A DNA stretch of 64,000 bases from Candidatus Latescibacterota bacterium (GTDB taxonomy: Bacteria; Latescibacterota; UBA2968; UBA8231): the NCBI GenBank assembly GCA_965242865.1, contig CBDETK010000008.1, positions 90,109 to 154,108 on the forward strand, written 5' to 3'. The notes below the pieces were generated by a model. That model had not been told where the DNA came from and made no database searches. It worked only from the letters and a program-made list of their open reading frames with translations. This document shows, one piece after another, positions 17,436 to 37,203 of this stretch; positions within the stretch are counted from its first letter, which is position 1; each line of letters begins with the position of its first letter. Made by a program: the position numbers and the translations under genes.

Positions 17436-19214
17436 CTACGGCGCTGTTCCCTGGCCCTCTTCCAGCAGCACTTGCCGATTGACCTTGAACGGACCGAAGC
17501 TCTCGACCAGTCCGCTGGGCCAGCGGGCTTCCACACGGCGGATTTCTTCCGCGCTCCCCACTCCGAAATGCAGCCGCATGTCGTTGTGCGACATGTAGCT
17601 GCCGCCGCTGCGCACCTCGTCCGCTTGGCGCATATCTCCGGACTCGACCACGACCCGCGCCCCAATGCCGTTGCGGTTCGACTGCGTCCCCTGCACGGCG
17701 ATGCGGATCCAGTTCCCGCCCGCGCCTTCGTTTCGCAGCAGGTTCGGGCGGCCATCCAGATTGTTCACGACCACTTCCACGGATCCGTCATTGTCCAGGT
17801 CGCCGAATGCCGCGCCCCGCGCCGCTGTCCTTTCGACGATACCCGGGCCCGCCTGCGCGGACATATCGATGAACGCTCCGTTGCGAATGTTCCAATACAC
17901 CAATCGCGGCTGCCGGTACCGGCTGGCCGACTCCAGCGTGTCGATCGTGGGGTATACGTGACCGTTGACGATGAACACGTCCTTCCAGCCGTCGCGATCC
18001 ATGTCGATGAAGCCGACGCCCCAGCCCACGGAATTGGTGTCGACCCCGAGCCCCGCGCGGTAAGAGACCTCCGTGAAGAATCCCCGGCCCTCGTTGCGGT
18101 ATAGCGAGGGCACGTCGTCGGAGAAGTTCGTCTTGACGATATCCACGCGACCGTCATGGTTGAAATCCGCCGCTGCCACGCCCATGCCCGCCTGCTCCTT
18201 GCCGTTCTCGTTCAGCGCCGTGCCCGACAGCAAGCCCACATCCTCGAACGTCCCGTCGCGCTGGTTGTGGAAGAGCATGCTGGGCGTCGAGTCGGCCGCG
18301 ATATAGATGTCCGTCCAGCCGTCATCGTCGAAGTCCAGCGTGAGCACGCCCAAGGCGTAGCGGTCGGTAGCGTGCGCAATACCGCTAGGCACCGAGACAT
18401 CCTCGAAGCGTCCCTCTCCCGTGTTGCGCCAGAGACGGCTAGTCTCGGGCGGCAAGCCGCGGGGTCCGCACAGAACCGCGAGGCCCTTGAATCGGCAGAA
18501 GTTGCTCTCGCCGGGAGTCGGGGTCGTGTCCAGATCGAGAGCGACGTAATGCGCGACGACCATGTCCAGCCAGCCGTCGCGGTCGTAATCGAGAAACGCG
18601 CAGCCGGTTCCCCAACGCTGTCCGGCCGTCGGAAGCCCCGTCGCTTCCGTGACGTCGGCGAACCGACGTCCCTCGAGGTTGCGGTACAGCCGGTGCGGGC
18701 CGTATTGAGTGACCAGCAGGTCGTCGAAGCCATCGTTGTCGTAATCGCCGACGCAGACGCCCTGTCCCCAGCCGCTTCGGTCTAGTCCGACAGTCTCGGT
18801 GACATCCTCGAAGCGCAGGTCGCCTAAATTGCGGAACAAGCGGCTGGTGGGCACTGCCTGCGTCTCGTCCGCGTCCCAGCGCCGCCCGTTGACGAAGAAC
18901 ACGTCTGCGAGACCGTCCCGGTCGTAATCGAAGATGGCCGCGCCGCCGCCCGTCGTCTCGAGGATGTAGCGCTTCTCCATCGGATCCCCGAGCACGTGGC
19001 GAAAGTCCAAGCCGGCCTCCGCGGCGACATCCTCGAAGTGAATTCGGGGCGGAGGCAGATCCGTTTTCGCGAGCGGAGAGCCCCGTGCGGTGCGTCCGGC
19101 TACGGCTACCCCTTGGGCCGTCAGGGCGACTGGCAGCGCCAAGCTCATGGCGGCGAGCACGGCCACTTGGCTGGGGAGCGACACGCCGACCATTGCGCGT
19201 GGGCATTCTCGCAT
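17436..19214 (-). CDS. CRTAC1-family protein (FG-GAP propeller + ASPIC/UnbV)
   Basis: Repeated DYDxDGxxD blades, ETTGGG, CGPRGL, C-terminal GSYMSHND.RLHFGVG..RWPSG. Start uncertain (19148-19280). Confidence 0.92.
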   Translation of the reverse strand: MRECPRAMVGVSLPSQVAVLAAMSLALPVALTAQGVAVAGRTARGSPLAKTDLPPPRIHFEDVAAEAGLDFRHVLGDPMEKRYILETTGGGAAIFDYDRDGLADVFFVNGRRWDADETQAVPTSRLFRNLGDLRFEDVTETVGLDRSGWGQGVCVGDYDNDGFDDLLVTQYGPHRLYRNLEGRRFADVTEATGLPTAGQRWGTGCAFLDYDRDGWLDMVVAHYVALDLDTTPTPGESNFCRFKGLAVLCGPRGLPPETSRLWRNTGEGRFEDVSVPSGIAHATDRYALGVLTLDFDDDGWTDIYIAADSTPSMLFHNQRDGTFEDVGLLSGTALNENGKEQAGMGVAAADFNHDGRVDIVKTNFSDDVPSLYRNEGRGFFTEVSYRAGLGVDTNSVGWGVGFIDMDRDGWKDVFIVNGHVYPTIDTLESASRYRQPRLVYWNIRNGAFIDMSAQAGPGIVERTAARGAAFGDLDNDGSVEVVVNNLDGRPNLLRNEGAGGNWIRIAVQGTQSNRNGIGARVVVESGDMRQADEVRSGGSYMSHNDMRLHFGVGSAEEIRRVEARWPSGLVESFGPFKVNRQVLLEEGQGTAP

Positions 19215-19310
19215 AGCCGCTCCAGTTCGTACGAGGCCAGCCCGCATCGCGAGTGGCGACCTACCTTGGCGGCATTGCACTTGTGGCGGCGGGCGGATAG
19301 CCTATGGGCC

Positions 19311-20936
19311 ATGCGGGGCGGTCCATGCATTGCGCTCGCTTGGGCGATCTGCGCTGTCGCGACCATGCCAGCGCTGTCCGCCGAAGCGGACGCCTGCGGG
19401 CAGTGCCATCCGCAGGAGGTTGCCGGATACCTCGAGACTGGCATGGGCCGCTCCATCGCACGTCACGCCGAGCAACCGCCCGGCGCGTTCGAGCATGCGG
19501 TCTCGGGATCCTCCTTCGATGTCGCGCGCTCGGACGCCGGCATGATCCAGCGGATCGAGCGCGACGGTCTCACCGCCGCCTATCCGGTCGAGTACGTGAT
19601 CGGCTCCGGGAACGCAGCATTCGGGTACCTGATCCGGGTCGACCAAGCGGTTTACCAATCTCCGATCGCCTACTACGCCAAGCGGTCTCGCTGGGGCATG
19701 GCTCCCGGGTACGAGGAGCATCCGGCACCCGACTTTGATCGGCCCGTCCTGCCCGAATGCCTCTGGTGCCATGTCGATCAGCCGCAAGCCGTGCCGCTGA
19801 GCCAGAACAGCTACGCGGGAGCGGACCTCGGGCTAGAGCCGATTTCTTGTGCGCGCTGCCACGGCGACGGTGCTGCCCACCTTGCCAAGCCGTCCGCCGA
19901 AACCATTGTCAATCCCGCCAAGCTGCAGCCGGTCGAACGTGACAGCGTGTGCGAGCAGTGCCACCTCAGCGGCGAGCTCAGGGTGCTCAATACCGGCAAG
20001 ACCTTCGGTGACTTCCGGCCCGGCATGCGTCTGGAGGATGTCTTCTCGGTCTATGTCGGCGATTTCGGCGACAACTCCCCGGGGCGGTTCAAGGTTGTCA
20101 GCCACGTGGAGCAGCTGCAGCTCAGCGCCTGCTACCGCCAATCGAACGGTTCCATGTGGTGCGGGACCTGCCACAACCCTCACGAGAAACCGACGGAGCC
20201 TGTGTCTTACTACAGATCCCGATGCCTGGATTGCCACGAGGGGACGCTGCCCGCCGGACATGTCGAGCCCGCCGCCGATTGCGTCTCCTGCCATATGGCT
20301 CGCCGTGCATCGCACGACAGCGGCCATAGCGCGTTCACGGACCACCTCATCGCCGCGCGGCCGAGCGCCGGGGAGGATCCCCAGCGACCAGCGCAACGCA
20401 TCCGAGCGTGGCGGGAATCAAGAGACGCGGAACTCGCCCAGCGGAATCTCGGGATGGCCTATATCGATCTCGGTCGTCGGCGAGAGCGGACGGAACTCTT
20501 GGACGAGGGAGCTTCCCTGCTGGCCCGGCTCGCGCAAGCCGGATCCTTGGACTCCGCCGGGCTAGCGGAGCTGGGCGGGGTGCTGATCGCGAAGGAAGCG
20601 CCGCCGGAAGCGGGCTTCAAGCCGCTCGCCGTGCAATTGCTGCGCGATGCGTTGGAACTGGCACCCGCGCATCCCGCGCGCCACCGCGCACTCGCGGCGG
20701 CGCTCTGGGATACGGGTGACCGCGAGCAGTCGATTGAACTTCTCGAGCGGGCGATCCGGCTCGATCCGCAAGTCAAGGCGGCGTATCAGGTGCTCGCTCG
20801 CATCTACCGGGAGTCCGGCGAACCCGATGCCGCCGCCGCGATCTGGAACCGGTACCTCGATCTGGTTCCGCAGAGTCTCGCGGCCCGGCGCGAGCGACGG
20901 ACCCTGCAGCGGCCCCTTTCGCTCGACGGCTTGTAG
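19311..20936 (+). CDS. Multiheme c-type cytochrome (7 CxxCH) with C-terminal TPR
   Basis: CGQCH, CLWCH, CARCH, CEQCH, CGTCH, CLDCH, CVSCH; signal peptide; TPR-like tail. Confidence 0.9.
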   Translation: MRGGPCIALAWAICAVATMPALSAEADACGQCHPQEVAGYLETGMGRSIARHAEQPPGAFEHAVSGSSFDVARSDAGMIQRIERDGLTAAYPVEYVIGSGNAAFGYLIRVDQAVYQSPIAYYAKRSRWGMAPGYEEHPAPDFDRPVLPECLWCHVDQPQAVPLSQNSYAGADLGLEPISCARCHGDGAAHLAKPSAETIVNPAKLQPVERDSVCEQCHLSGELRVLNTGKTFGDFRPGMRLEDVFSVYVGDFGDNSPGRFKVVSHVEQLQLSACYRQSNGSMWCGTCHNPHEKPTEPVSYYRSRCLDCHEGTLPAGHVEPAADCVSCHMARRASHDSGHSAFTDHLIAARPSAGEDPQRPAQRIRAWRESRDAELAQRNLGMAYIDLGRRRERTELLDEGASLLARLAQAGSLDSAGLAELGGVLIAKEAPPEAGFKPLAVQLLRDALELAPAHPARHRALAAALWDTGDREQSIELLERAIRLDPQVKAAYQVLARIYRESGEPDAAAAIWNRYLDLVPQSLAARRERRTLQRPLSLDGL

Positions 20937-21086: not shown

Positions 21087-24000
21087 ATGCGTCCATTCCG
21101 GAACTTGGTAACTGTCGCGACACTGGTCCTGTCGCTGGCCATCGCGCCAGCTGCATTCGGGCAGGCCGTGAGCGGCACGATCACGGGCGTGGTCACGGAC
21201 CCGACGGACGCCGCGATCGCGGGAGCGGGTGTCACGATCACCAACGTCGGCACGGGGATCGAGACGAGCCGCGAGACGGACGAGTCGGGCCGCTACATCA
21301 ACACGAACCTGCCGCCAGGCACGTACATCGTGGCCGTCGAGGCGGCGGGCTTCCAGCGCTACGTCCAAGAGAACGTGGTGCTCCGCGTCGACCAGACGGT
21401 GCGCGTGGACCCCGTGCTCGAGCTGGGCGCGGTGACGGAGCAAGTCGTCGTCAACGCCGCGCCACCGATGCTCAAGAGCGAGAAGACGGACGTCGGATCG
21501 TATATCCCCGAGAACCAGCTGCAGGCCGTGCCCACCTTCGGGAACAACCTCAGCAAGCTCTACAACACGGTTCCCGGCGTCATCCAGAACTTCTTCCAGA
21601 TCGGCATCGGCGAGAACCCTTCGGAATTCAACGGCACCTTGGTCAACGGGCAGTTCTTCGGCAACAGCGAGTACGAGGTCGACGGCATTACCAACACGGC
21701 TTACGGCTTCAGCGGCTTCCAGATCATCGTGCCCAACAAGGACTCCGTGTCGGAACTGAAGATCACGACCGCTTCGTTTGACCCCGAGTTCGGCTCCTCG
21801 GCGGGCATGGTGGCGCAGTACGTGACCAAGTCCGGTACCAACGAGTTGCACGGCTCGGCCTTCTGGTTCAACCGCAACGATTCCACGTTCGCGGCGGATC
21901 CTTTCACCGAGAAAGTCGCGGGCACCGGCCCCAATGGCACGGGGACCGGGCCGGCGCCATTCAAGTGGAACCAGTTCGGCGGCAGCGTCGGCGGTCCGAT
22001 CGCGAGGAACCGGGTCTTCTGGTTCACGGATTATCAAGGCGTGGAGGCTTCGCAGGGAGCCCAGCTGACCGCGACCGTGCCGAACGACGCGTTCCGCGAG
22101 GGCGACTTCAGCGCGTGGCCGGGTAATCCCGTCTTCGACCCCGCCAGCGGCGTGACCGGCGGCGGGACGGGGCGCAGCCAGTTCACCAACAACCGGATCC
22201 CCGCCTCGCGCGTCAATCCAGTCGCGACCAACCTCTTGGCACTCCTCCCGCGCGCGAATCTGAATCAGGACACCCAGCAGAACTTCAACGCCGGCGACAG
22301 CGTGACCAACTCGTCGAAGCAGTGGGATGTCCGCGTCGATTCGTCGGTGGGCAATTCGGGCATGGCCTTCGCCCGGTACACGCTGGCGCAGGTGTTCCTC
22401 GACAATCCGCCGCTATTCGGCGCGGCGGCTGGCGGTCCGGCGGTCGGCGGCCTGAGTCCGCAGACGGGCGACTTCCGCATGCAGCACCTGTCGACCAACT
22501 ACACCCACACGTTCTCGCCGACATTCCTGACCGAGGTGCGGGCCGGATTCTCCCGGTTCCGCCTGGACGGATACCAGTACGACGCGGGCCTGTCCACGAA
22601 TACCGATGTCGGCATCCCGAACATCAACACCGACGACAGGCTGACGCAAGGGCTGGCGGGAATCGATGTTTCCGGCCCGGTCGGAGGCTGGTCGATGGGC
22701 ATCCTCAGCGGCGTCGGCATCCCGCGCTTGGATCGCACCACGACGCCCCAGTTCGTGAGCAACTCGACCCTGATCAAGGGCAGCCATCAATTCCGGTTCG
22801 GCGCGGACATCCGATACACGTCGTTCGACTTCATCGCCGCCAACTTCAGCTCGCGCGGCAACTTCCGATTCGGGAATCGCTTGACCGGCAGCCAGGAACT
22901 CGAGGAGCAGTCGATCCCGAGCGGACTGGGCATGGCTTCGTTCCTGATGGGTCTCCCGGACAACTTCAATCGCGTCGTTTTCGAGGACTACACGAAGGAG
23001 CGCGGGTGGCGCACCTCGCTGTACTGGCAGGACACGTGGCGGATCAACGCGCGGCTGACCTTCAATTTCGGGCTGCGGTACGACTTCGTCGGACCCGTAC
23101 ACCCGGCGGATGCCGGCGGGATCGCGAACTTCGATCCGAACACCGGTGACATCCTGCTGGCCGGACTGGGGGACATCGACATGCGTGCCGGCGTCCGCCC
23201 GGACTGGAACAACATCGCGCCGCGCGGCGGACTGGCTTACAAGCTGACCGACAAGACCGTGATCCGCACGGGATTCGGGCGCAGCTACTTCGCCTCCAAC
23301 TACGGCGGGCTGTTCTACGCGATGACGAACCTGTATCCCATCACGGCCCAGCAAGAGGAGCAGGCTCGCAACAACTACGTGCCGGTCTTCCCGATCGAGC
23401 AGGGCCCGCCGCCGTCGCCGCCGCTGCAACTGCCCGACTCGGGCAGGCTCAAGGCGCCCGAGGGGGTCTTGCTCCGGTATCGTCCGGAGGACAACGCCAC
23501 CGAGTACATCGACTCGTGGAACTTCTTCCTCGAAAACCAATTCGCCCAGGACTGGAAGGTGTCGATCGGCTACGTGGGCAGCGTCGGGCGGAAACTGTGG
23601 TGGAACCACAACATGAACGCCGCTCCCGCCAGCACCGATCCGGACATCGCCTCGCGACGGCCGCTCTTCCAGTCCATCGGGTACGGCTCGCGCGTCAGCA
23701 ACGGCTGCAATTGCGCGAGCTCGCACTACTCGGCGCTGCAGTTCGTCATCGAGAAGCGCTACTCGAAGGGCTACTCGATCAACTCCTCGTTCACGTGGGC
23801 GAAGGCGCTGGACGGGCAGCTCGGCGGCTTCGGCTGGGGCGATCAGGGAGCGAACCCTCACGATCGCAAGGGCGGCTACGGCATTTCGCCGTACAACCGC
23901 GCCGTGGTCTGGGTGCTGTCGCACAACTGGGAACTGCCGTTCGGCAAGGGCCGCCGGTTCGCTAGCAGCGCGAGCACGGCGCTAGACGCCATCATCGGCG

Positions 24001-24458
24001 GCTGGCAGTTCAACGGGGTGACGACCCTCGAAACGGGTTTCGCGTTCTCGCCGACCGGCACGAACACGACCCACAACGGGGAATTCGGGAACCGGCCGGA
24101 TCGCATCGGCGACGGGAGCCTGGACAACCCGACACGGCAGCGATGGTTCGATGTGGGCGCGTTCACGAGCGGGCAGTACGGGATCTGGGGCAATGCGGGG
24201 CGAGGCATCCTGCGCGGTCCGCCCTTGGTGGGCACGGACTGGTCGTTCTGGAAGGAGTTCCGGTTCAAGGAGGACTACCGCCTGCAGGTGCGGTGGGAGA
24301 ACTTCAACATGATCAACTACACCAACCTCGGTCCGCCGGTCAGCAACATCACCGCGCCCAACGCGGGCTCGATCAACGGACTGGCAGGCTCGACCAGCGT
24401 GAACCCGGTCACCGTGCCGATGCGCCGGATGCAATTCGGGCTCCGGTTCGTGTTCTAG
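21087..24458 (+). CDS. Oar-type TonB-dependent transporter
   Basis: GGAGG RBS; GTITGVVTDP carboxypeptidase-regulatory domain; TKSGTNELHGS; NQFGG; QDTW..LTFNFGLRYD; C-terminal RRMQFGLRFVF. Confidence 0.95.
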   Translation: MRPFRNLVTVATLVLSLAIAPAAFGQAVSGTITGVVTDPTDAAIAGAGVTITNVGTGIETSRETDESGRYINTNLPPGTYIVAVEAAGFQRYVQENVVLRVDQTVRVDPVLELGAVTEQVVVNAAPPMLKSEKTDVGSYIPENQLQAVPTFGNNLSKLYNTVPGVIQNFFQIGIGENPSEFNGTLVNGQFFGNSEYEVDGITNTAYGFSGFQIIVPNKDSVSELKITTASFDPEFGSSAGMVAQYVTKSGTNELHGSAFWFNRNDSTFAADPFTEKVAGTGPNGTGTGPAPFKWNQFGGSVGGPIARNRVFWFTDYQGVEASQGAQLTATVPNDAFREGDFSAWPGNPVFDPASGVTGGGTGRSQFTNNRIPASRVNPVATNLLALLPRANLNQDTQQNFNAGDSVTNSSKQWDVRVDSSVGNSGMAFARYTLAQVFLDNPPLFGAAAGGPAVGGLSPQTGDFRMQHLSTNYTHTFSPTFLTEVRAGFSRFRLDGYQYDAGLSTNTDVGIPNINTDDRLTQGLAGIDVSGPVGGWSMGILSGVGIPRLDRTTTPQFVSNSTLIKGSHQFRFGADIRYTSFDFIAANFSSRGNFRFGNRLTGSQELEEQSIPSGLGMASFLMGLPDNFNRVVFEDYTKERGWRTSLYWQDTWRINARLTFNFGLRYDFVGPVHPADAGGIANFDPNTGDILLAGLGDIDMRAGVRPDWNNIAPRGGLAYKLTDKTVIRTGFGRSYFASNYGGLFYAMTNLYPITAQQEEQARNNYVPVFPIEQGPPPSPPLQLPDSGRLKAPEGVLLRYRPEDNATEYIDSWNFFLENQFAQDWKVSIGYVGSVGRKLWWNHNMNAAPASTDPDIASRRPLFQSIGYGSRVSNGCNCASSHYSALQFVIEKRYSKGYSINSSFTWAKALDGQLGGFGWGDQGANPHDRKGGYGISPYNRAVVWVLSHNWELPFGKGRRFASSASTALDAIIGGWQFNGVTTLETGFAFSPTGTNTTHNGEFGNRPDRIGDGSLDNPTRQRWFDVGAFTSGQYGIWGNAGRGILRGPPLVGTDWSFWKEFRFKEDYRLQVRWENFNMINYTNLGPPVSNITAPNAGSINGLAGSTSVNPVTVPMRRMQFGLRFVF

Positions 24459-24495: not shown

Positions 24496-24838
24496 GGATC
24501 TTCGCCCGGGCGGCGATTGTCGCTGCCCGGCTTCTCAGTGCCCGAGGCTGGTTCCGCAAGCGAGTTGGTGCGGATTGCGGTGATAGTCGGGGATTAGCGG
24601 ATTCCTCGCCAGTGCCTCCGGCTTCCGGCTACACGCTCACCGTCGGAGCAGGTCCTGACCCCGGTGGCAGGGCGGTTACTCGCACACACCGAAAGACAGG
24701 ACCAGCGCAACGCATCTCAGCGCATCTTCAAGTCCACCTCGAAAGACTCGTTCTCGTGATGTCCACCCCTATCATCGTCTTGAGTTGACAGCTCTTGCCT
24801 GCGTGTTTTATTCTATAGCAAGAGTGGGCGAGGGAAGT

Positions 24839-25333
24839 GTGCCGGTTCCATATGACTCCAAGGCTGTGGCAAACTATTTCTTGAGTCAAGAGCACTTGAC
24901 TCAGATGAAGTTGCACAAGTTGATCTACTACGCACATGGTTGGCACCTAGCCCTTAGAGACGAGCCGCTGATGGACGAGTTCGTCGAGGCTTCGACGTAC
25001 GGCCCCTTGATACCGACAGTATTCCATGAGTTCAAGGATGTCGGAACGTCACCTATTTCTAGGCTCGCGACGGACTTTGATCCGCTCACGGGTCGCTGGG
25101 ATCGAATTCCTGCGATCGATGCGGACGATCAAGCGACAGAGAGGCTGCTGGATCGTGTGTGGGCGGTATATAGAGTCTATTCGCTTGGTCAATTGATCCG
25201 CATGACGCACGAACCGGGCACTCCTTGGTCGGAAACCCGCTCAGAGAATCGTGGCATCAAGAATGCCAACATTCCGAACGAGTTGATTCAATGCTTTTTC
25301 GTCGATAAAATGAACGGAAAGGATCAGGAATAG
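24839..25333 (+). CDS. Panacea/DUF4065 (SocA-like) antitoxin, orphan
   Basis: VANYFL..LTQMKLHKLIYYAHGW..EAxxYGP..THEPGTPW; lower GC than its neighbours. Confidence 0.88.
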   Translation: MPVPYDSKAVANYFLSQEHLTQMKLHKLIYYAHGWHLALRDEPLMDEFVEASTYGPLIPTVFHEFKDVGTSPISRLATDFDPLTGRWDRIPAIDADDQATERLLDRVWAVYRVYSLGQLIRMTHEPGTPWSETRSENRGIKNANIPNELIQCFFVDKMNGKDQE

Positions 25334-25645
25334 TCATAAGAGATCGAGCTAGGGCAAATACGCGAGCGCGAAGATGTGCGAGATGATCTGCCGGAAGAGC
25401 AGCACAGTATTCGAATGACCAGCTAGTGTGCGGCAAGTGTGGGCTCCATGCCCATTCGCGAGCCGGAGCTGACCCTTCACGAGCCCTCGACAGAGTGCTA
25501 TGCCGTGTGCGATGACGCCCCGGTGGCAGCCCCCGGGGCGATCAGCCGACGACCGAATTTCCCTAGCGACGGTCTGACCGGTCGGCCGGGTCGAATGCCC
25601 TTGCGCGATAATTGCCACGGGCCAAGACGGCTTTCGGCTGGACCG

Positions 25646-26839
25646 ATGCGGCGAACACTCAGCGCGGCGACATGCGCCTTGGCACTTTCGTCCATCCACG
25701 CCCAGTCCCCACCGGCACCTCCGTCCGATTCCGTTCAAGCGCGCTTCCAGAGCGCCCAGCAAGCACTCTCCGAGCATCGCTACGCCGAAGCCGAGACGGC
25801 TTTCGAGGAGCTGGTCGCAGCCGCCCCGAACCTTTCCGGGGCCCATGCCAATCTCGGCGTAGCCCGATACCTGCAGGGCCACTACGAAGAGGCGTCCAAC
25901 GCTTTCCGCCGGGCACTCGAAATCAGTCCGTCGATGCCTAGCGTCGAACTGTACATGGGGCTGAGCCAAGCCAGGGCGGGACGAAGGGAGGAAGCCTTCC
26001 CCGCGCTGGCCCAGGGCTTTTGGAATGCGAGCGACGACGACTGGCGCCTTCAGGCGGGAATGATCCTCGCCGAGTTGCATGCCGCTCGCCACGAAGACGA
26101 AAAGGTCCTCGATGTCGTCCGGGCCCTGAAGAAAGCCTTTCCCGGCAATCCCGATGTCCTGTACGCGGCCTATCGCCTGCACTCCGACATGGGTGCGCGG
26201 ACGCTCGCTGACTTGGTCCGCGAGGCGCCCGGATCCGCGCGTTTGCACCAAGTTACGGCGGAATTGCTGGTTAGCGAGGGAGACTACCCGCGCGCGGTGC
26301 GGCAGTACCGCGAAGCGCTCAAGGTCGCGCCGCAATTGGGCGGATTGCATCGGGCTCTCGCGGTAGCCATCATGAACAGCAATCCAGATGAGGACGGCAT
26401 CCGCGAAGCAGAGCAGGCACTCGAGCGCGAACTCGCTCTGAATCCGCGCGATGTCGAATCACTGTTCCAGTTGGGAGAGATCGCGTGGCGACGCGGCGAC
26501 GAGGAGTCGGCCTTGCGACGCTACGAAGAGGTGCTCGAAGTGCAACCCACGTTCGTGGAGGGGCTGGTCGGGCTGGCCAAGGCGCTGATCGCTCGAGGCG
26601 AGTTCGGCCGTGCCGCCGAGCGTTTGGAATCCGCCGTCGGAATCGACTCCGAGCATGAAGTCGCCCGTTACCGCCTCGCACAAGCGTACCGACAGCTCGG
26701 CCGGCCAGAGGAAGCGGCCAAGGAGCTAGAGGAATTCCGGCGTATTCGCAGCGCTTCCGAGGCATTGAGCGCGATCTACCGCCAAGTCCAGCGCAGCACG
26801 GCCCCGAGCGACGACAGCGCTGCGGCGAGTTCTCAATGA
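25646..26839 (+). CDS. Secreted TPR protein
   Basis: Signal peptide MRRTLSAATCALALSSIHA; many 34-aa TPR repeats; ends ARYRLAQAYRQLG. Confidence 0.88.
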   Translation: MRRTLSAATCALALSSIHAQSPPAPPSDSVQARFQSAQQALSEHRYAEAETAFEELVAAAPNLSGAHANLGVARYLQGHYEEASNAFRRALEISPSMPSVELYMGLSQARAGRREEAFPALAQGFWNASDDDWRLQAGMILAELHAARHEDEKVLDVVRALKKAFPGNPDVLYAAYRLHSDMGARTLADLVREAPGSARLHQVTAELLVSEGDYPRAVRQYREALKVAPQLGGLHRALAVAIMNSNPDEDGIREAEQALERELALNPRDVESLFQLGEIAWRRGDEESALRRYEEVLEVQPTFVEGLVGLAKALIARGEFGRAAERLESAVGIDSEHEVARYRLAQAYRQLGRPEEAAKELEEFRRIRSASEALSAIYRQVQRSTAPSDDSAAASSQ

Positions 26840-26889
26840 GCGCTGCCCGTCTCCGAAGGTTACCTGCACGTCCTGTCGGCAAGAAGTCA

Positions 26890-29800
26890 ATGGCAAGACA
26901 CTCGAGACGGCTCGACCGACACACGATCCGCCGGGCCGCAATCCTGTTGGTTTGCGCACTTCTCGGCTTGCTCGCTGTCGCTGAGGAGTCGCCGGATCCA
27001 TCCTTCCACCTGCCCGGCGAATGGGGCGGTCCCGCTGGAGGCGATTTGGCCCGCATGGTGGATCCGTCCAACGACTCGTACGCCACCGAAGTCTACGCCG
27101 AAGAAATCGCTGCGGAACTGCATGCTCTCGCTGATCAGCTGCTCGTAGATCCGACCGACGGCGAGGCCGTCCGTAGTTTGCTGGATCCGGTCTTTCGGGG
27201 CGCTCCGCTTGAAGGGCCTGACGAATCGAAGCGACAGGGAGGACTCGCAGTGTTCGAAAGCTCCCCGACCAAGGAGACGATTCTGAACGCGGATCAGTTC
27301 GCGGCCGCTTTCTCCGGGTTAGTTGGCCGCCACGGCCAACTCGAGAGTGCCGAGTTCCACGTCACCGGTCTGGCGGAGCGTACCGCGCGAGGGGAAACCG
27401 AAGTTGAATCGGTCGTCCATTACGCGTTGTTCGGTCCGACCGGCGATGGCAATGGATCCGTCCAGCAGACGGGCGAGTGGATCTTGACTTGGACTCGTCG
27501 CGCATCGGGTTGGAGCGTGCGGACATGGCAGACGAGCAAGCACAGCCGCGTCGAGGCTGTCCGTCCGCTCTTCACCGACGTGACCGAGCAGTCTCTGGGA
27601 TCCAACGAATCCTACTGGAAGCAGCTGACCTTGGGCGTCGATCATTGGCGGGCCGCCCTTGATGGCGCGATCGGCATCGATGTCTACGGACACCACGGCG
27701 TCAGCCTCGGGGACATTGATGGCGATGGAGATGACGACCTCTACGTAAGCCAGCCGTCCGGCCTCCCGAATCGGCTCTATCGCAACAATGGCGGATTGGT
27801 CTTCACCGACATCACCCGAGCATCGAGCGCGGGGGTGCTGGACAGCACTTCCATGGCCCTGTTCGCCGACATTGACAATGACGGCGATCAGGATCTGACG
27901 CTGATCACCGCGCGAGCCCCGATCCTCCTACGCAACGACGGCACGGGTTCGTTACAGCACGATCGGGACGCGTTCAGCTTCTCGGTCTCGCCGCGTGGTC
28001 AGCTCACGTCGGCCGCAATGGCCGACTACGACCGCGACGGCGATCTCGACTTGTACGTCTGCTCCTATCGATTCCACGCCGGGGCCGGGGATCACCGTCC
28101 GCCCCAGCCGTATCACGACGCCAACAACGGGCCCCCGAACTTCTTCCTCCGCAACCGAGGGGACGGCACATTCGAGGAGGTCACCGCGGCGAGCGGCCTC
28201 AATGCGAACAACACGCGCTTCAGCTTCGCCGCCGCTTGGGCCGACTACGACGCTGACGGCTGGCCCGACCTTTACGTCGCGAACGACTTCGGTCGCAACA
28301 ACCTCTACCGCAATCGCGGCGATGGCACGTTCTCCGATGTTGCGGAACTCGCAGGCGTGGAAGATGTCGCCGCGGGCATGAGCGTCGCGTGGCTGGACCA
28401 CGATTTGGACGGCAACCGAGACCTGTATGTCGGAAACATGTGGTCGTCAGCAGGCCTCCGCATCAGCGACAAGGCAGAATTCCGGGCGGGTTCCGCCACG
28501 GAAGCACTGGCCCTCTACCGGCGTCACGCGAAAGGGAACTCTCTGTTCCGGGGCCTTGGCGAGGGACGCTTCGACGAGATTTCCTCGACGGCTGGGGTGG
28601 AGCGCGGGCGCTGGGCTTGGAGCAGCGACGCTGTCGATCTCGACAATGACGGCTACGAGGAACTCTATGTCGCCAACGGGTACGTCACGAACGCCAGCGA
28701 CCGAGATCTTTGAAGTTTCTTCTGGCGGCAAGTTGTGTCGCGCTCGCCCGCCGACGAGCGGTCGGCATCGGACTACGAATCCGCGTGGAGATCGATTACC
28801 GCACTCATCGAAGCCGGGGAATCGTGGAGCGGGAACGAGCGGAACCTCTGCTACCTCAACAACCGTGACGGCACGTTTGCGGAAATCTCGGCGGTGGCCG
28901 GTCTCGACTTTCCTGACGATGGGCGTGCGTTCGCTGCAGGGGATCTGGACGGTGACGGCGATCTCGATTTGGTGCTGAAGTCGCGCAACGCACCCGGCAT
29001 CCGCATCGTGCGCAACGACTGGTCCGCGGGCAATTCGATTCGCATCAGGGTGCGCGGCGGACCGGAGCGGCGTTCCGCGGCAGGTGCGGTCGCTACGGTT
29101 CAAACCGACGGTCGCCGTATGGAGAAAACTCCGCGCATCGGTTCGGGGTTCCTGTCGCAGCACTCTCAGGAACTGCACTTCGGACTCGGATCGGCGGATG
29201 ACGTCGAAGAACTGCGTGTGAGTTGGCCTTCCGGGACAGAGCGAGTCTGGAGGAACTTGGCTGCGAATCGACGCTACTCGGTAGCCGAGGATTCGGATCG
29301 CATCGCTTCGATGGCATTCGAGACGACACCGCGAGATACCGGATCGAATGACGCGAACCGGCCGCTGCCGCCCGAACTGGCCTCGGGAACCTGGCTCGTC
29401 GAACCCCTCGCGGCACCGGATTGGGAACTCAAGGATCTCGATGGCCTCGCACGTAGCCTCTCGGATTTCCGGGGCGCTCCGCTCGCCGTGAATGTCTGGG
29501 CCACTTGGTGCCCGCCCTGCCGCGGCGAATTGCGGGACTTCCAGCGCAACTTGGGGGAGTTCGAGCAGGCTGGAGTGCAATTGGTCGCGGTCTCGGTTGA
29601 CGAACCGGGCACTGCCACTGAGGTGGCCGCATTCGCCCGGGAGGAGCGATTGGGATTCCCAGTGCTGCTTGCGGATCGCGATTTCGTCACTGCCTACAAC
29701 GTCCTGAAGCGCAACATGTTCAACCTCCGGTCCGATTTGCAGATTCCCACTACCTTCCTGCTGAACCGGGAAGGATTCATCGAACGCATCTATCAGGGCC

Positions 29801-30663
29801 GCATCGAACCGGAGCGCCTCTTACGCGACATGGAATTCCTGGATGAGCCTGCGGCAACCCGACTTGCCCGAGCCCTTCCGTTCGAAGGGCGCTTTCTCGG
29901 ACCCGCGCCGATTCGAAACTACACCGCATTGGGGACGGAGCTGCTAGAAGGCGGTTTGTCTGGAGCAGCCCTGCCGTACTTCGAGGCCGCGGCCGAAAGA
30001 GTTCCGAACGACGCCATCCTTCAATTCAACCTCGGCACGGCTCTGGCCGCGCGGGGTTCGCTGGCTGCGGCGCAGTTCGCTTTCGACCGGGCCGTGCGAT
30101 TGAATCCTGCCTACAGCGAGGCACGCAACAGCCTTGGAGTCGTTCTGGATCGCCTCGGGAACCAGGAAGCGGCCATCGATCAGTTTCGAGCAGCGGTCGA
30201 GGCCAGTCCATCGTACGAGAAGGCGATCGGCAACCTATCGACCGCCTATGCACGCTCCGGAAAATTGGATCTCGCCATCGCAATGCTGGAAGCGGCCATA
30301 GCCAGTGATCCGAGTGCGGTCAGATTGCTCAACCGCCTCGGTCGGCTACACGCCCGAAAAGGAGCTCTCGACGCCGCCCGGAACCGGTTCGACCAAGCGT
30401 TGAAGACGGCACCGACGGATCCCGACACGCTCAATAATCTCGCGCTCCTCGCAGCCCAACGTGGGGAATTCGGCGAAGCGATGGCTCGGCTCCACGACCT
30501 CGTCGGTGCGCGACCCGACTTCGAACCCGCCTACCTCTCGCTCGCGCAGGTGCAGGCCGCGACGAACGATCCAGAGGGGGCCCGAGCGACGCTGGAAGCG
30601 CTTCTCGCGCGGCATCCGGGAAACGTGGAAGGGCGGAAGATGTTGGACGGGCTGGAGAACTAG
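26890..30663 (+). CDS. FG-GAP/CRTAC1 + ASPIC/UnbV + TlpA-like redoxin + TPR protein with one in-frame UGA (28711-28713)
   Basis: ORFs 26836-28713 and 28735-30663 are in the same frame, joined by D-L-TGA-S-F-F-W-R-Q-V-V. FG-GAP blades lie on both sides; GFLSQHS.ELHFGLG; WATWCPPC; TPR tail. Confidence 0.8.
28724..28752 (+). promoter_or_regulatory. Candidate bacterial SECIS-like hairpin
   Basis: GGCGG(28724-28728) pairs with CCGCC(28748-28752). The imperfect upper stem has a bulged U and an apical GU, and the hairpin begins 11 nt after the UGA. Folded by eye. Confidence 0.4.
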
Positions 30664-30745: not shown

Positions 30746-32038
30746 GTGCGCGTCAAGCAGCCGCTCAAATTTTCCTCCGGCGATCCGACGGGAGTTGGCT
30801 CGAGATCGCGATTCGTCAAGCTCGTTGCCGCGTCAGTGCAGAGGCTTTGCGCTGGATGCACGGCACTTGTCGCGTGCTGGGCCTTATCCGGAGACCTCCT
30901 TGGTCAATCGGGAGCGAGCAGCCAGCTCGAATCCATCTATCGCGAAGCGGAGACCGCCTTTCGCGAGCAGCGACTGGACGTCGCAGCGGACGGTTATCGC
31001 GAGCTGGCCGAACTCAGTCCGGAAACCGCGGAAGTCCACGCGAAGCTCGGCTTGATCGAATACCTCCGCGGCCGATTCGGCGAGGCGGTACCCGCCCTCC
31101 GCGCGGCCCTGCAGCTGAAACCCGGCTTGCCGAACGTGAACACGCTGCTGTCGATCTCGCTCGCGGAACTCGGGCAGTTCGCCGAGGCCTTGCCCGGATT
31201 GGAGAAGGGCTTTGAAGATCCGGCAGACAGTGACTTGCACCGATTGATCGGACTGGAGTTGCAGCGCAGCTACTCCGCCCTCGGTCGCCAGCACGAAGCC
31301 AGCCGCACCATGGGAAAGCTGAGCGAACTGTATCCGGACGACCCTGAAATCCTTTACCACACCGGTCGCTTCTTCGCGGATCTGGCGGCGTCTTCGATGC
31401 GGCGCCTGCTAGATGTCGCACCGGATTCCGTCTGGGGTCATCAAGCGGCCGCCGAGGCTTTGGACAGCCAAGGCAATTACGACTTGGCGGTGGTCGAGTA
31501 TCGCAAGGTACTTGCGGAGCAACCGGGTCGGCCGGGAGTGCATTACAGCATCGCGCGGGCGATCCAGCGGAGCGGCGGCAAGGCTGGATCCGAGGCCGAT
31601 GCGATCGCCGAGTTCCGCGACGAGCTGCGGATCGACCCGTCCAACGCGCTGGCCGCGTACGAACTCGGAGAAATTTACCGCAAGAGCGGACGATTGGACG
31701 ACGCCCTTGATCTGTTTCGGCAGGCTGTTCGCCACCGGCCTGACTTCGGTCTCGGCCGGATCGGTCTCGGTCGGGTGCTGCGGGAACTTGAAGACCTGAG
31801 CGAGGCGCGGACACACTTGGAAGCCGCGACGCGCTTGGCACCGGACAACGAAGTCGCGCGCTATCAGCTAGCGTCGGTCTACCGCGGGCTTGGCGACCTC
31901 GACAGCGCACGGCGCGAGATGGAGGCCTTTCAACGGCTGCAGGCTCGCCAACCGGGTGACTCGGAGGCAGGTCGGCTACCGTTCCAACGCGAGGATTCCA
32001 CGCTCCAGCGCCTTGACCCAACCGAGCAGGGCCAGTAG
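30746..32038 (+). CDS. Secreted TPR protein, paralogue of 25646-26839
   Basis: TPR repeats; shared APDS/APGS and ARYQLA..YR.LG motifs; start uncertain. Confidence 0.85.
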   Translation: MRVKQPLKFSSGDPTGVGSRSRFVKLVAASVQRLCAGCTALVACWALSGDLLGQSGASSQLESIYREAETAFREQRLDVAADGYRELAELSPETAEVHAKLGLIEYLRGRFGEAVPALRAALQLKPGLPNVNTLLSISLAELGQFAEALPGLEKGFEDPADSDLHRLIGLELQRSYSALGRQHEASRTMGKLSELYPDDPEILYHTGRFFADLAASSMRRLLDVAPDSVWGHQAAAEALDSQGNYDLAVVEYRKVLAEQPGRPGVHYSIARAIQRSGGKAGSEADAIAEFRDELRIDPSNALAAYELGEIYRKSGRLDDALDLFRQAVRHRPDFGLGRIGLGRVLRELEDLSEARTHLEAATRLAPDNEVARYQLASVYRGLGDLDSARREMEAFQRLQARQPGDSEAGRLPFQREDSTLQRLDPTEQGQ

Positions 32039-34084: not shown

Positions 34085-35833
34085 CTATTCTTCATTAGAT
34101 TCCTGCTCACGTGTAGAATCGGTTCTGAGAGAATCACCAATGATTTCTCTAACTCGATTAAGGATAAGATCGGCTCTTTGCTCGCAAAACTCATGAAACT
34201 TTCCGAGCGAAAACAGTTCTGCCCATTCAGCATCACATGGATTTCCAGGTATCATACAATCCCTAGTCCTCGCCGACAAACCACCGAGGGTAGATTGTTG
34301 TCTAGCTCGATCTGCCAATCGACGAAGATAATTCGCGGGATAGTCTTCGCCAAGGCGCTGGTTTGTAGTGCCTAGGATTGGCACACGATTGCAAATGCTG
34401 TCCAACTTCTGTCGAGGTAGCCCATCATTCTTGGACGCGTTCTTTGGGAAAATATGGTGATCATGAAGGACGGATTCTGAATCAATGTTTTTTCCGGTGA
34501 TGAGATCTTGACGGATAGTCGTTGCGAAGACATTCAAGAGTGCTCTATACCTCACATCTGATGGCCTAAGTCTAAGCAAATCATCGCGATTTAACCGAAC
34601 CTCCGAAACATCCAAGGGTTCATTGTTTTCGGCATATCTTCGTAACGCACTAAAATGTTGGCCAATCCTGTAATTTGATGCCTGTGAAGCACCTGCCTGC
34701 ATAACCTTGCTGAAGTACCAACGTCTCACGAAGTCGTTATCGTCCCACAGATCTTCGGTTACATCATCTAATATTAGGCTCCGAATCGCAGCTAGTGCGA
34801 CTAGAATATTGTGGTTCGGAAGCGTCTTAGGTCGGGCGCCAAATGCCTGTACCCACTTGTACGTTGCTGCTAGGGCCTGAGTCGATTTTTCCCACTCTCG
34901 ATCTATTTCCTCGGGTGCTAGAGTCAACAGATTTCCACGCGTTGGATCCGTGTATCTCATTGATCGTGCTGCAGTTACAAGAAACAACACTTGGAGCACA
35001 CTCTCTCCATCAACCTCAAAATGCTTGAGAATTTCATGCTCGCTCAGTGCTTCTTCCCACCAAGCACGTAGATCGGGTTTCGGGAAGAATCGCGCTACCG
35101 CAAGGTCGAAAGTAGTTAATCGAGTTCCCGTACTATTGATGGTCTCAAAAACACGGCATATCGATTCAATACCGCTCTTTCGTTCGAGAGTCACAACGGG
35201 TACATGGTAGTTCCGAATGGTCTCAAATACGCCCTTGATGTACGCGGCGGATTCACGCCGTTTCTGTCTGCTATACTGTGGATCCGAAAAATCACCGGAA
35301 TCTTCAATATATGCAGTGACAAACACATCTGTTCTCTTTTGGTCGAGGATTATATCGGCACGTAACAACCTACCCTTGTCAAGGGTCTGTTCCGGCGTCG
35401 TCTTTCTATATCGCGTCTTGATCCAAGAAGTCTCTTCTCTGGCGTGAGCTTCAAGCAGATTCTTCAGGTCAAAATAATAGACTCTTCTAGGGTGTGCATT
35501 CAAGAATACACGTGCAATTGAAGTTGTTCTCTGCTGCCCATCAAGGATATAGGACTCGCCATCAACCTGCCCACCAGCGTCACCAAGCACGACGTCTTCT
35601 GGCGGAAATCCTGCCTTAATTTCGGCCTCGATACTGCGAGATCGTAGCGGCAGAGTTGGCTCGCGATCAAGCAACAGCAATGACCCGATCGGATAGTCTC
35701 GTGAGATCGAATCGATCAGCAGCGCAACTTGAGAATTGCTCCAGATGAACTTTCTCTGGAACTGTGGGATCGTCAAGGTCCCATCTTTCGCCCTTCTGAG
35801 CAAATCACCCAGTTTGTAGTTTGTTGTTTGCAT
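34085..35833 (-). CDS. DUF262 (GmrSD-like) protein with C-terminal HNH-like region
   Basis: IPQFQRKFIW, YPIGSLLL, ILDGQQRTT, VFETINSTGTRL; C-terminal HDHHIFPK..DSICN..TN; markedly low GC. Confidence 0.9.
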   Translation of the reverse strand: MQTTNYKLGDLLRRAKDGTLTIPQFQRKFIWSNSQVALLIDSISRDYPIGSLLLLDREPTLPLRSRSIEAEIKAGFPPEDVVLGDAGGQVDGESYILDGQQRTTSIARVFLNAHPRRVYYFDLKNLLEAHAREETSWIKTRYRKTTPEQTLDKGRLLRADIILDQKRTDVFVTAYIEDSGDFSDPQYSRQKRRESAAYIKGVFETIRNYHVPVVTLERKSGIESICRVFETINSTGTRLTTFDLAVARFFPKPDLRAWWEEALSEHEILKHFEVDGESVLQVLFLVTAARSMRYTDPTRGNLLTLAPEEIDREWEKSTQALAATYKWVQAFGARPKTLPNHNILVALAAIRSLILDDVTEDLWDDNDFVRRWYFSKVMQAGASQASNYRIGQHFSALRRYAENNEPLDVSEVRLNRDDLLRLRPSDVRYRALLNVFATTIRQDLITGKNIDSESVLHDHHIFPKNASKNDGLPRQKLDSICNRVPILGTTNQRLGEDYPANYLRRLADRARQQSTLGGLSARTRDCMIPGNPCDAEWAELFSLGKFHEFCEQRADLILNRVREIIGDSLRTDSTREQESNEE

Positions 35834-37203
35834 TTTTCCTGTGTGATCCAAACTGATGATTCTGTGTTAGTCGATGACAACTTGCGCGAGCTGAAGAATG
35901 ATCCCGGGCTAGCTTGCTCGAAGCACGGTCGGTCCGCTTGGCGAGTGGGAGCGAACGGTTCGTACGGCTCTGCTCCAGGACTGCCTCACCCCGGTCTTCT
36001 CTGCAATCCTACAGGCGGCCCAGAGACCACTTGCCGACCCACTCGCCGCATGCGATCGCGTGGGGCTCACAGGTGTCAGCGGAGCATCGCGGACAACGAA
36101 CCGGTCGGGCACAGTGCGATCCACTCTGAACCCAGTATAACAGGTAAGTCGACCTAGCTGCTAGTCACAGGATAGTATCCGTCAGTCAATGGTATCGCCT
36201 AGCTCGGATCCACTTCCAGTTTGCTTGGAATCTCCCCGCCGCGAGGAGATCTGCGACATGGCATCCACTCCAGCGAACGCAGCCGAAGGCCTCGGACATG
36301 CTTCTCGGCAGGGGCACCGTGGCGGTACGCGAATCGCAGAGGCCCCCTTGGTTGAGCATACCGCGCTGAACCGCCCCTGAACCGTTCCCGGGGAGAAATG
36401 AGCGTACGGGTTGGATGTTGGGCTTGATCTTGACGATTGCTTGAATGGTCTGCGGCATCAGGCAGGCCAGGCGACATGACGCCGACGGTCGATCGCGGCG
36501 GTCGCTTCGCGAAGAGACTAGGTGAAATAAGGCCTTTGGAGTGACCTGGACACTCTCCGGAGAGTCGTAGCCGGCCAGCGACCGTGATAGTGATTTCGGC
36601 CGCACAGCGGACGGACCCTAATCCAGCGAGGAGCGCAGTGGCGGACTCCCGCGCTAGTTGCGCGAGCCTTTGTCGAAGGGGCTGTTTCGTGGCGGACAGC
36701 TAGCTGGGATCACGATTTGCGTTGGCAAGACGTAGCGTTCGGCGGGAGCGCACTCGCGCACGGTCCGGATCTTGGTGCTTCCAACCCGCGCAAGCAGTCC
36801 GATCTGCTCCAACGAAACGATCCGATCGAGACTGATCAAGAGTTCCGACAGTTTCTTGCTCTCGGGCTCAAGAGCTGGAAATCCCAAACATTCTTAACTG
36901 GCCAGAGGTCATGTTGTCTGAAGCAGGGTACGCGCCGAGCGAAGGTCGACGAGCTTCGGAGACTGGCTGAATGCCGCGTGACCGGAGTGATTGAATCCTC
37001 GCTCCGCGTGCTCTCGATCTCGACCTCGCCGCCAGACTCGCCTGCCCCTATCGTAGATATTGGGATATGGGCGATACGACGCGTCCGCAGTTCGCGACTG
37101 TCGGCAGCACGGGGTTGCTCGAGAAGGGACCTCAGTGCTGTCGCGGTATGCATGCAGCACGGGTCGTTCGCCGATTCGACGAAAGGACGGAAAGGGGACA
37201 ACG

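Follow-up and report, generated by a model that had tools for sequence, protein, structure and literature searches.

Bacterial selenoprotein genes of the SelB type, of which E. coli fdhF is the archetype, carry an in-frame UGA codon that adjoins a hairpin within the coding region, the bacterial selenocysteine (Sec) insertion sequence (bSECIS), whose apical loop is small. The gene described here has the same arrangement. It lies in a 64,000-nt window (the whole stretch of DNA that was analyzed) on contig C8 (154 kb) of a genome bin of Candidatus Latescibacterota (assembly GCA_965242865.1). Two open reading frames (ORFs), at 26836..28713 with an ATG start and at 28735..30663 with a GTG start, share a frame there and are split by a single TGA at 28711-28713. 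As in SelB-type SECIS elements, the hairpin that follows has a G and then a U in the first loop positions, a UGA-to-loop spacing of 17 nt, and a folding energy at or below -7.5 kcal/mol. We consider it very probable, on comparative grounds, that this TGA is the Sec codon of one 1275-residue protein.

In its domains, the product resembles the CRTAC1/ASPIC-UnbV proteins, in that an FG-GAP propeller is followed by an UnbV/ASPIC domain, both scoring above the Pfam cut-offs. Unlike CRTAC1, to which it is only 20% identical, the product also has a helical insertion bearing the proposed Sec, a CPPC redoxin domain, and a TPR region; CRTAC1 is not known to have a redox role or to contain selenium. The redoxin domain is like TlpA and ResA in its thioredoxin fold and in a CxxC motif at a helix N-terminus, and is here fused to a putative catalytic module. 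PilB-type Trx-MsrA-MsrB proteins are fusion enzymes that are recycled in cis by a TlpA/ResA-type domain; in the window protein, by contrast, the partner module is a propeller with a proposed Sec and not an Msr domain. Typical selenoproteins are small thiol oxidoreductases or molybdoenzymes, whereas this would be a large, multidomain propeller protein that is predicted to be exported. Unlike in the usual Sec families, moreover, relatives of the window protein seldom have Cys at the Sec column. The gene is made up of the following features:

26836..30663, forward strand: whole gene, 1275 codons plus a TAG stop, as defined by the ORFs, the read-through translation, and Pfam.
27688..29070, forward strand: FG-GAP beta-propeller, residues ~285-745, in which a two-helix insertion starts at the proposed Sec (Pfam and structure model).
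28711..28713, forward strand: in-frame TGA, the proposed Sec codon, residue 626.
28725..28741, forward strand: SECIS-like hairpin, with a 5' arm GCGGCA (28725-28730), a loop AGUUG (28731-28735), and a 3' arm UGUCGC (28736-28741).
29077..29277, forward strand: UnbV_ASPIC domain, residues 748-814 (Pfam, 65.3 bits against a cut-off of 23.4).
29410..29805, forward strand: AhpC-TSA/Redoxin domain of TlpA/ResA-like type, residues 859-990.
29920..30645, forward strand: C-terminal TPR region, residues ~1029-1270 (Pfam).

Read-through translation gave a product of 1275 residues, ...ANGYVTNASDRDL-X-SFFWRQVVSRSP...ERNLCYLNN, where X is the TGA. This translation confirmed the shared frame and the flanking residues reported in a first-pass annotation made from the letters of the window alone, and Pfam bore out its FG-GAP, UnbV, CPPC redoxin, and TPR domains (FG-GAP_3 scored 156.5 bits, above the cut-off). 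That annotation was also correct in finding no clear ribosome-binding site for the downstream part: direct reading of the 21 nt from the TGA to the GTG at 28735 revealed no purine-rich Shine-Dalgarno-like run. The codon at 26890 is the second Met (M19), an alternative start in the frame that opens at 26836. The N-terminus of the product is Arg-rich and continues into a hydrophobic signal-like segment, which we infer to resemble an export signal. Uninterrupted full-length relatives of ~1270 residues have an architecture like that of the window gene, and in all likelihood the two ORFs are one gene rather than two gene fragments. TGA is not reassigned in the host of contig C8, because it serves as an ordinary stop there and closes 64 of the 126 long open frames. 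NCBIfam contained neither a propeller-specific model nor a selenoprotein model for the window protein.

Conservation of the codon was examined with a query of 301 residues around the TGA. The best match in same-genus genomes contained exactly one TGA in 24/24 cases. In the bin's phylum (168 genomes; match threshold E ≤ 1e-25), 51 genomes had a match, and among the 70 matches listed, 52 (in 49 genomes) contained one TGA, 1 contained TAA, and 17 contained no stop, the last being a separate paralogue that is ~32% identical. The TGA occupies the identical column, ahead of S-[LF]-F-W-R, in all 36 fetched loci of this phylum, whose products share only 36-45% identity with the window protein; for the 16 of the 52 TGA matches that were not fetched, the column was inferred. 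These phylum loci belong to two further architectures, type A of ~945 residues with a redoxin domain and type B of ~853 residues without one. The homologue with an in-frame TAA in place of the TGA (G151:C9:37996-38871, reverse strand) is probably a real pseudogene. Outside this phylum, the motif D-x-x-S-F-F-W-R was found in 49/80 loci of named species genomes, and 43 of these 49 have the TGA; the other six have Ser (2), Met (2), Gly (1), or Asn (1). Carriers of the TGA are labelled Bryobacterales, Marinacidobacterales, Acidobacteriota, Planctomycetota/Pirellulales, and Verrucomicrobiales. One of the 43 loci (L049) comes from a genome flagged as unpublished, and no result depends on it. The 40 predicted proteins closest to the window's, which have 63-95% identity and are encoded on contigs of up to 6.2 Mb, all terminate at ...DL, and together with 11 more, 51 of the 117 predicted proteins examined terminate exactly at the TGA column.

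The same codon is found in contigs of several sequencing runs and is followed by coding sequence. Contigs from 4 sequencing runs in 4 studies span the site, and positions 28711-28713 are TGA in all of them, even in a variant that shows 31 differences over 798 bases; one of the 4 runs may be the source of the assembly itself. Between the TGA and the next start, the Ser-Phe/Leu-Phe-Trp-Arg codons vary synonymously (AGC/AGT, TTC/TTT, CTG/TTG/CTC) while the amino acids are kept, which implies that the stretch 3' of the TGA is translated. These comparisons indicate that the TGA at 28711 is not an accident; the possibility raised in the first-pass annotation, that it is unique to this assembly, was contradicted both by the 36/36 and 43/49 loci and by the four studies. 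In two divergent metagenome variants, differences flank 28705-28763 but none falls within it, a pattern consistent with the TGA and hairpin being under constraint.

The first-pass annotation had described a GC stem with an apical GU starting 11 nt after the UGA, and this structure is present at 28725-28741 as a 6-bp stem with a 5-nt loop. In PMC13188914 (Fig. 2 legend), the bSECIS model calls for a loop of 3-9 nt, a stem of 4-16 bp, a G in the first two loop positions, a UGA-to-loop spacing of 16-37 nt, and a minimum free energy ≤ -7.5 kcal/mol, and the hairpin satisfies all of these constraints. A 20-nt stretch of locus L045 that is letter-identical to the window's folds at -8.1 kcal/mol. When the 20 nt starting at the Trp codon were folded for the named-genome forms, 43/43 TGA forms gave a stem of 6-7 bp and a 5-nt loop at -7.9 to -11.6 kcal/mol, compared to only -3.0 to -7.7 kcal/mol for the corresponding 20 nt of the 6 sense forms. 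Three versions of the stem occur, namely GCGGCA...UGUCGC in the window, GGCGCCA...UGGCGUC in type A, and GGCGCAC-GGUC-GUGCGYC in type B, and in each of them G22-U23 (numbered with the U of UGA as position 1) falls in the apical loop.

In an alignment of 60 sequences, 98.1% of the cells were paired, compared to 17.8-66.1% in slid controls. One pair was GU in 29 sequences, CG in 16, GC in 8, AU in 4, and UA in 1, and the other 2 cells belonged to register-shifted hairpins. The covariation score was 0.240 compared to 0.114 ± 0.013 in shuffles, and was reached by 0/500 of them. Covariation within subfamilies was thin, with no two-sided change in type B and two in type A plus the window form. Some stem changes alter the protein yet keep the pair, including Ser to Pro (G-U to G-C) and, in locus L037, Ala to Thr (C-G to U-A), and the synonymous third-codon positions G39 and G42 are at least 90% fixed. 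Across these homologues, the hairpin is kept wherever the TGA is kept, with compensatory changes, which answers the earlier doubt about whether it would be conserved. A scan of 28600-28900 against Rfam, with E up to 10, returned no SECIS family and four chance-level matches.

An AlphaFold2 model of residues 250-1010, built from an 87-row alignment, had a mean predicted local distance difference test score of 92.3 and a predicted template modelling (TM) score of 0.92. The first-pass annotation had placed the UGA in a loop within one propeller blade. Its location inside the propeller was upheld, but the model makes the encoded residue the N-terminal one of a helix (377-387, model numbering) in a two-helix insertion between blades. 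The CPPC motif of the redoxin domain (residues 892-895, 29509-29520) likewise opens a helix (644-655, model numbering). The best structure match of the propeller plus UnbV part was the murine CRTAC1 crystal structure 9etn_A (E 5.1e-29; TM 0.68 on the target; 589 aligned columns), and the redoxin part matched ResA 2f9s_A (TM 0.89 on the target; 32% identity) and TlpA structures. Scores for the NCBIfam equivalogs fell under their cut-offs (ResA, 73.6 bits against 170; TlpA, 55.4 against 230), and the redoxin is therefore classed as a family-level domain and not as a ResA or TlpA orthologue. Residues kept in the TGA forms include the calcium-loop aspartates D347, D349, D351, D501, and D711, together with F599 and G661. 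In glutathione peroxidase-type sites, Gln, Trp, or Asn act as catalytic partners; among the TGA-form-specific residues, no obvious candidate for a catalytic partner of the Sec was found.

Among 120 close sense-codon relatives, the residue at the Sec column is Ser in 65, Ala in 28, Gly in 16, Asn in 10, Glu in 1, and Cys in none (0/120), which verifies the statement in the first-pass annotation that some acidobacterial homologues have Ser or Asn here. The 141 placed representatives of 50%-identity clusters, some of whose rows are FG-GAP repeat matches and not true columns, have mainly E (29), D (23), S (22), N (14), A (13), G (8), M (7), Q (6), and C (3). In one search, CxxC was present in 104/106 C-terminal fragments from TGA forms, compared to 0/13 full-length sense forms. 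In a joint alignment, both Cys of the motif were present in 19/19 TGA forms that have a redoxin domain, whereas the sense forms had the first Cys in 4/120 and the second in 67/120. By these alignments, the TGA co-varies with the redoxin active site. P0364, one of the 3 Cys forms, also has CxxC; a complex prediction with this form (propeller 235-855 plus redoxin 880-1040) scored 0.01, which gives no verdict and is no evidence either way.

The sense-codon relatives (P0002-P0121) also have seven conserved propeller Cys (columns 279, 305, 340, 358, 409, 466, and 518) that are absent from the TGA forms, and their DxDxD calcium loop at 347-351 is degenerate, whereas it is kept in the TGA forms. These relatives appear to be a distinct sister family, possibly stabilized by disulfides.

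The genes for Sec synthesis and insertion are present in the assembly, as the first-pass annotation had suggested looking for, with matches to SelA (E 5e-140), the SelB winged-helix domain, tRNA-SeC(tca), and selD, but all are on the 5.6-Mb contig C13, apart from the window on C8. Contig C13 also has TGA-bearing genes that are ordinary known selenoproteins: selD itself, with an in-frame TGA (C13:4179924-4180847, reverse strand; ..ACGG-U-ASKL..), and an fdhA-like molybdopterin gene (C13:5380933-5382201, reverse strand; CSRA-U-HAPTVAGL). The fdhA-like gene has a GGUC-loop hairpin at a distance from its TGA equal to that of the window hairpin. A type B copy of the propeller family on this main chromosome (C13:5412029-5412907, forward strand) has the TGA at the matching column and a GGUC-loop hairpin.

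Contig C8 is probably a mis-binned acidobacterial contig, because its tetranucleotides correlate with those of C13 at 0.888, compared to at least 0.977 for 150-kb pieces of C13; because TAA closes 7/126 long frames on C8, compared to 168/667 on C13; because no syntenic match for 20 kb of the window was found in 30 same-genus genomes; and because the outer-membrane barrel gene beside the propeller gene has 86-90% protein identity to equivalent neighbours in Bryobacterales metagenome-assembled genomes. Most other small contigs of the bin (C1-C5, C10, and C11) also correlate poorly, at 0.83-0.88. As C8 is likely foreign, the sel genes of the bin may belong to another organism, and carrier genomes were checked directly, with SelA as the sole marker of Sec machinery in those outside the phylum. 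SelA was found in 41/41 outside genomes with a TGA form (5/5 complete and 36/36 further genomes) and in 48/49 TGA-carrier genomes of the phylum, so that, judged by SelA, the absence of sel genes, a further doubt of the first-pass annotation, does not apply to these carriers; the single miss (G081) is 80% complete in 820 contigs.

Several results weigh against reading the TGA as a Sec codon or against its link to the CxxC domain. The window hairpin alone is no better than chance (86-nt fold, z = 0.98; 171/200 shuffles fold equally well), and the case that it is real therefore depends on the comparison of homologues. In that comparison, two-sided changes occur at one pair only, the shuffle tests are inflated by relatedness, and the stem is partly fixed by the conserved Trp-Arg codons. 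Cys, found in only 3/141 representatives, is rare at the column, which is unusual for a Sec site; because of this rarity in relatives, the description of the protein as an unusual selenoprotein in the first-pass annotation is fair. At least 5 sense-form representatives keep CxxC (a sixth row, P0457, was a spurious motif match and was left out), and the link between TGA and CxxC thus becomes looser at greater distance. Type B forms lack a redoxin domain altogether; at the column of residue 722, 17/17 of them have Cys and type A has His. The sel genes of the assembly are on C13, whereas C8 looks foreign and is probably so. Finally, SelA is widespread anyway, occurring in 131/168 genomes of the phylum and in 4/5 sense-form genomes. 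As SelA is common in these clades, its co-occurrence with the TGA discriminates weakly and provides consistency, not proof.

Three other explanations of the TGA were weighed against the same data. If it were a recent nonsense mutation or a miscalled base, the ORFs would be the halves of a pseudogene. Full-length relatives with sense codons do exist, a Ser TCA or Gly GGA codon is one base away from TGA, and the G151 homologue has TAA. We nonetheless give almost no weight to a broken gene or assembly error, given that loci only 36-69% identical to the window protein share the TGA across several phyla, that even the divergent variant among the contigs of the four studies keeps it, and that both halves are intact and conserved. 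The TGA might instead be a true stop that separates a 625-residue propeller fragment from a 642-residue UnbV-redoxin-TPR protein started at GTG 28735, with the hairpin serving in coupling or mRNA stability. Exactly these two products are called in at least 100 clusters, and the GTG stands 7 codons past the TGA. Such a stop, however, would cut inside the propeller, in the between-blade insertion of a confidently modelled single fold. Moreover, the 7 codons from TGA to GTG are conserved as protein with synonymous variation, no Shine-Dalgarno-like run stands ahead of the GTG, and types A and B have Leu or no residue at the position of the window's Val start, while the frame is always kept. These observations make true termination very unlikely.

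Selenium-free read-through, in which a near-cognate tRNA (Trp, Cys, or Arg) or a suppressor reads the UGA at some level and the hairpin merely slows termination, is similarly improbable. It would accord with a column that tolerates many residues in relatives; yet if any residue is tolerated, a costly stop should give way to a sense codon, and the TGA is instead retained and co-varies with a redox CxxC. The geometry of the hairpin and the G-U of its loop are those of SelB-type SECIS elements, a GGUC-loop hairpin lies equally far from the TGA in the bin's fdhA-like gene, and all of the outside carrier genomes encode SelA.

In the proposed decoding of the TGA as Sec, a SelB-type factor with Sec-tRNA(Sec) would bind the hairpin 11 nt downstream, and the ribosome would read through the UGA to make the single 1275-residue protein. 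The selenol, at a helix N-terminus on a CRTAC1-like calcium-binding propeller, would then be a redox-active nucleophile that reacts with an oxidized extracytoplasmic substrate. The fused TlpA/ResA-like CPPC domain would recycle the Sec in cis and would itself be re-reduced by a membrane electron shuttle of the CcdA/DsbD kind; holding the substrate or a partner would fall to the propeller and the TPR region. No electron-shuttle gene was found among the neighbours compared across loci. Our confidence in this relay between the selenol nucleophile and the fused CxxC domain is evenly balanced. Slightly more tentatively, Sec may have been recruited where relatives have non-Cys residues, creating a new selenol centre on the propeller that is serviced by a TlpA-like CxxC domain; exported selenoenzymes of a new class would then be common among Acidobacteriota, Planctomycetota, Verrucomicrobiota, and members of the bin's phylum.

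The propeller gene has the following neighbours in the window:

21087-24458, forward strand: gene with a CarboxypepD_reg domain and an outer-membrane beta-barrel of 838 positions.
25439..26839, forward strand: upstream TPR-protein ORF, whose TGA stop overlaps the ATG of the propeller gene (ATGA).
30746..32038, forward strand: downstream TPR-protein ORF.

Because of the ATGA overlap, the upstream TPR ORF and the propeller gene probably form one operon. In loci L045 and L048, a TPR gene 63-65% identical to this ORF lies on the downstream side of the propeller gene. Homologues of the barrel gene adjoin the propeller gene in L045-L047 and L103 (86-90% identical), with more distant ones in L052 and L091, and the outer-membrane barrel protein may be a functional partner of the propeller protein. 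The window also contains a shorter FG-GAP/UnbV_ASPIC paralogue of 614 residues that lacks a TGA (17436-19280, reverse strand). It is overlapped on the opposite strand by an ORF (18996-20936, forward strand) with multihaem cytochrome c7/c3-like and TPR matches. Two ORFs close to the locus are of the defence type, namely a SocA/Panacea antitoxin-like ORF (24785-25333, forward strand) and a GmrSD-type restriction endonuclease ORF (34085-35851, reverse strand).

In our literature search, no main text was found that describes a selenoprotein of FG-GAP, UnbV, or CRTAC1-like type. The available portions of three selenoproteome papers (PMC13188914, PMC12013277, and PMC13326102) mention no FG-GAP/UnbV/CRTAC1-like selenoprotein. 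The accessible main text on BSepDB, which has 111 families (PMC13326102), contains 0 occurrences of FG-GAP, VCBS, or "repeat", and that of Kim et al. (2016; PMC4807772) contains 0 occurrences of FG-GAP or UnbV. According to the available parts of PMC12013277 and PMC13188914, standard selenoprotein searches depend on Cys homologues (Cys/Sec pairs), and such searches would thus miss the propeller family. What is known here is ordinary bacterial Sec decoding; what appears to be new is its host, an unusually large, putatively exported protein that is uncatalogued in the literature searched.

If the TGA is indeed a Sec codon, several hundred database entries, annotated as "VCBS repeat protein" and "TPR/redoxin protein", would be the halves of one selenoprotein, and a blind spot of Cys/Sec-pair search methods would be exposed. 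A selenoproteome dominated by small cytoplasmic redox proteins would gain a large, exported, multidomain member, and the co-occurrence of an intact CxxC and the Sec codon would provide a testable handle on the biochemistry of bacterial CRTAC1-like propellers.

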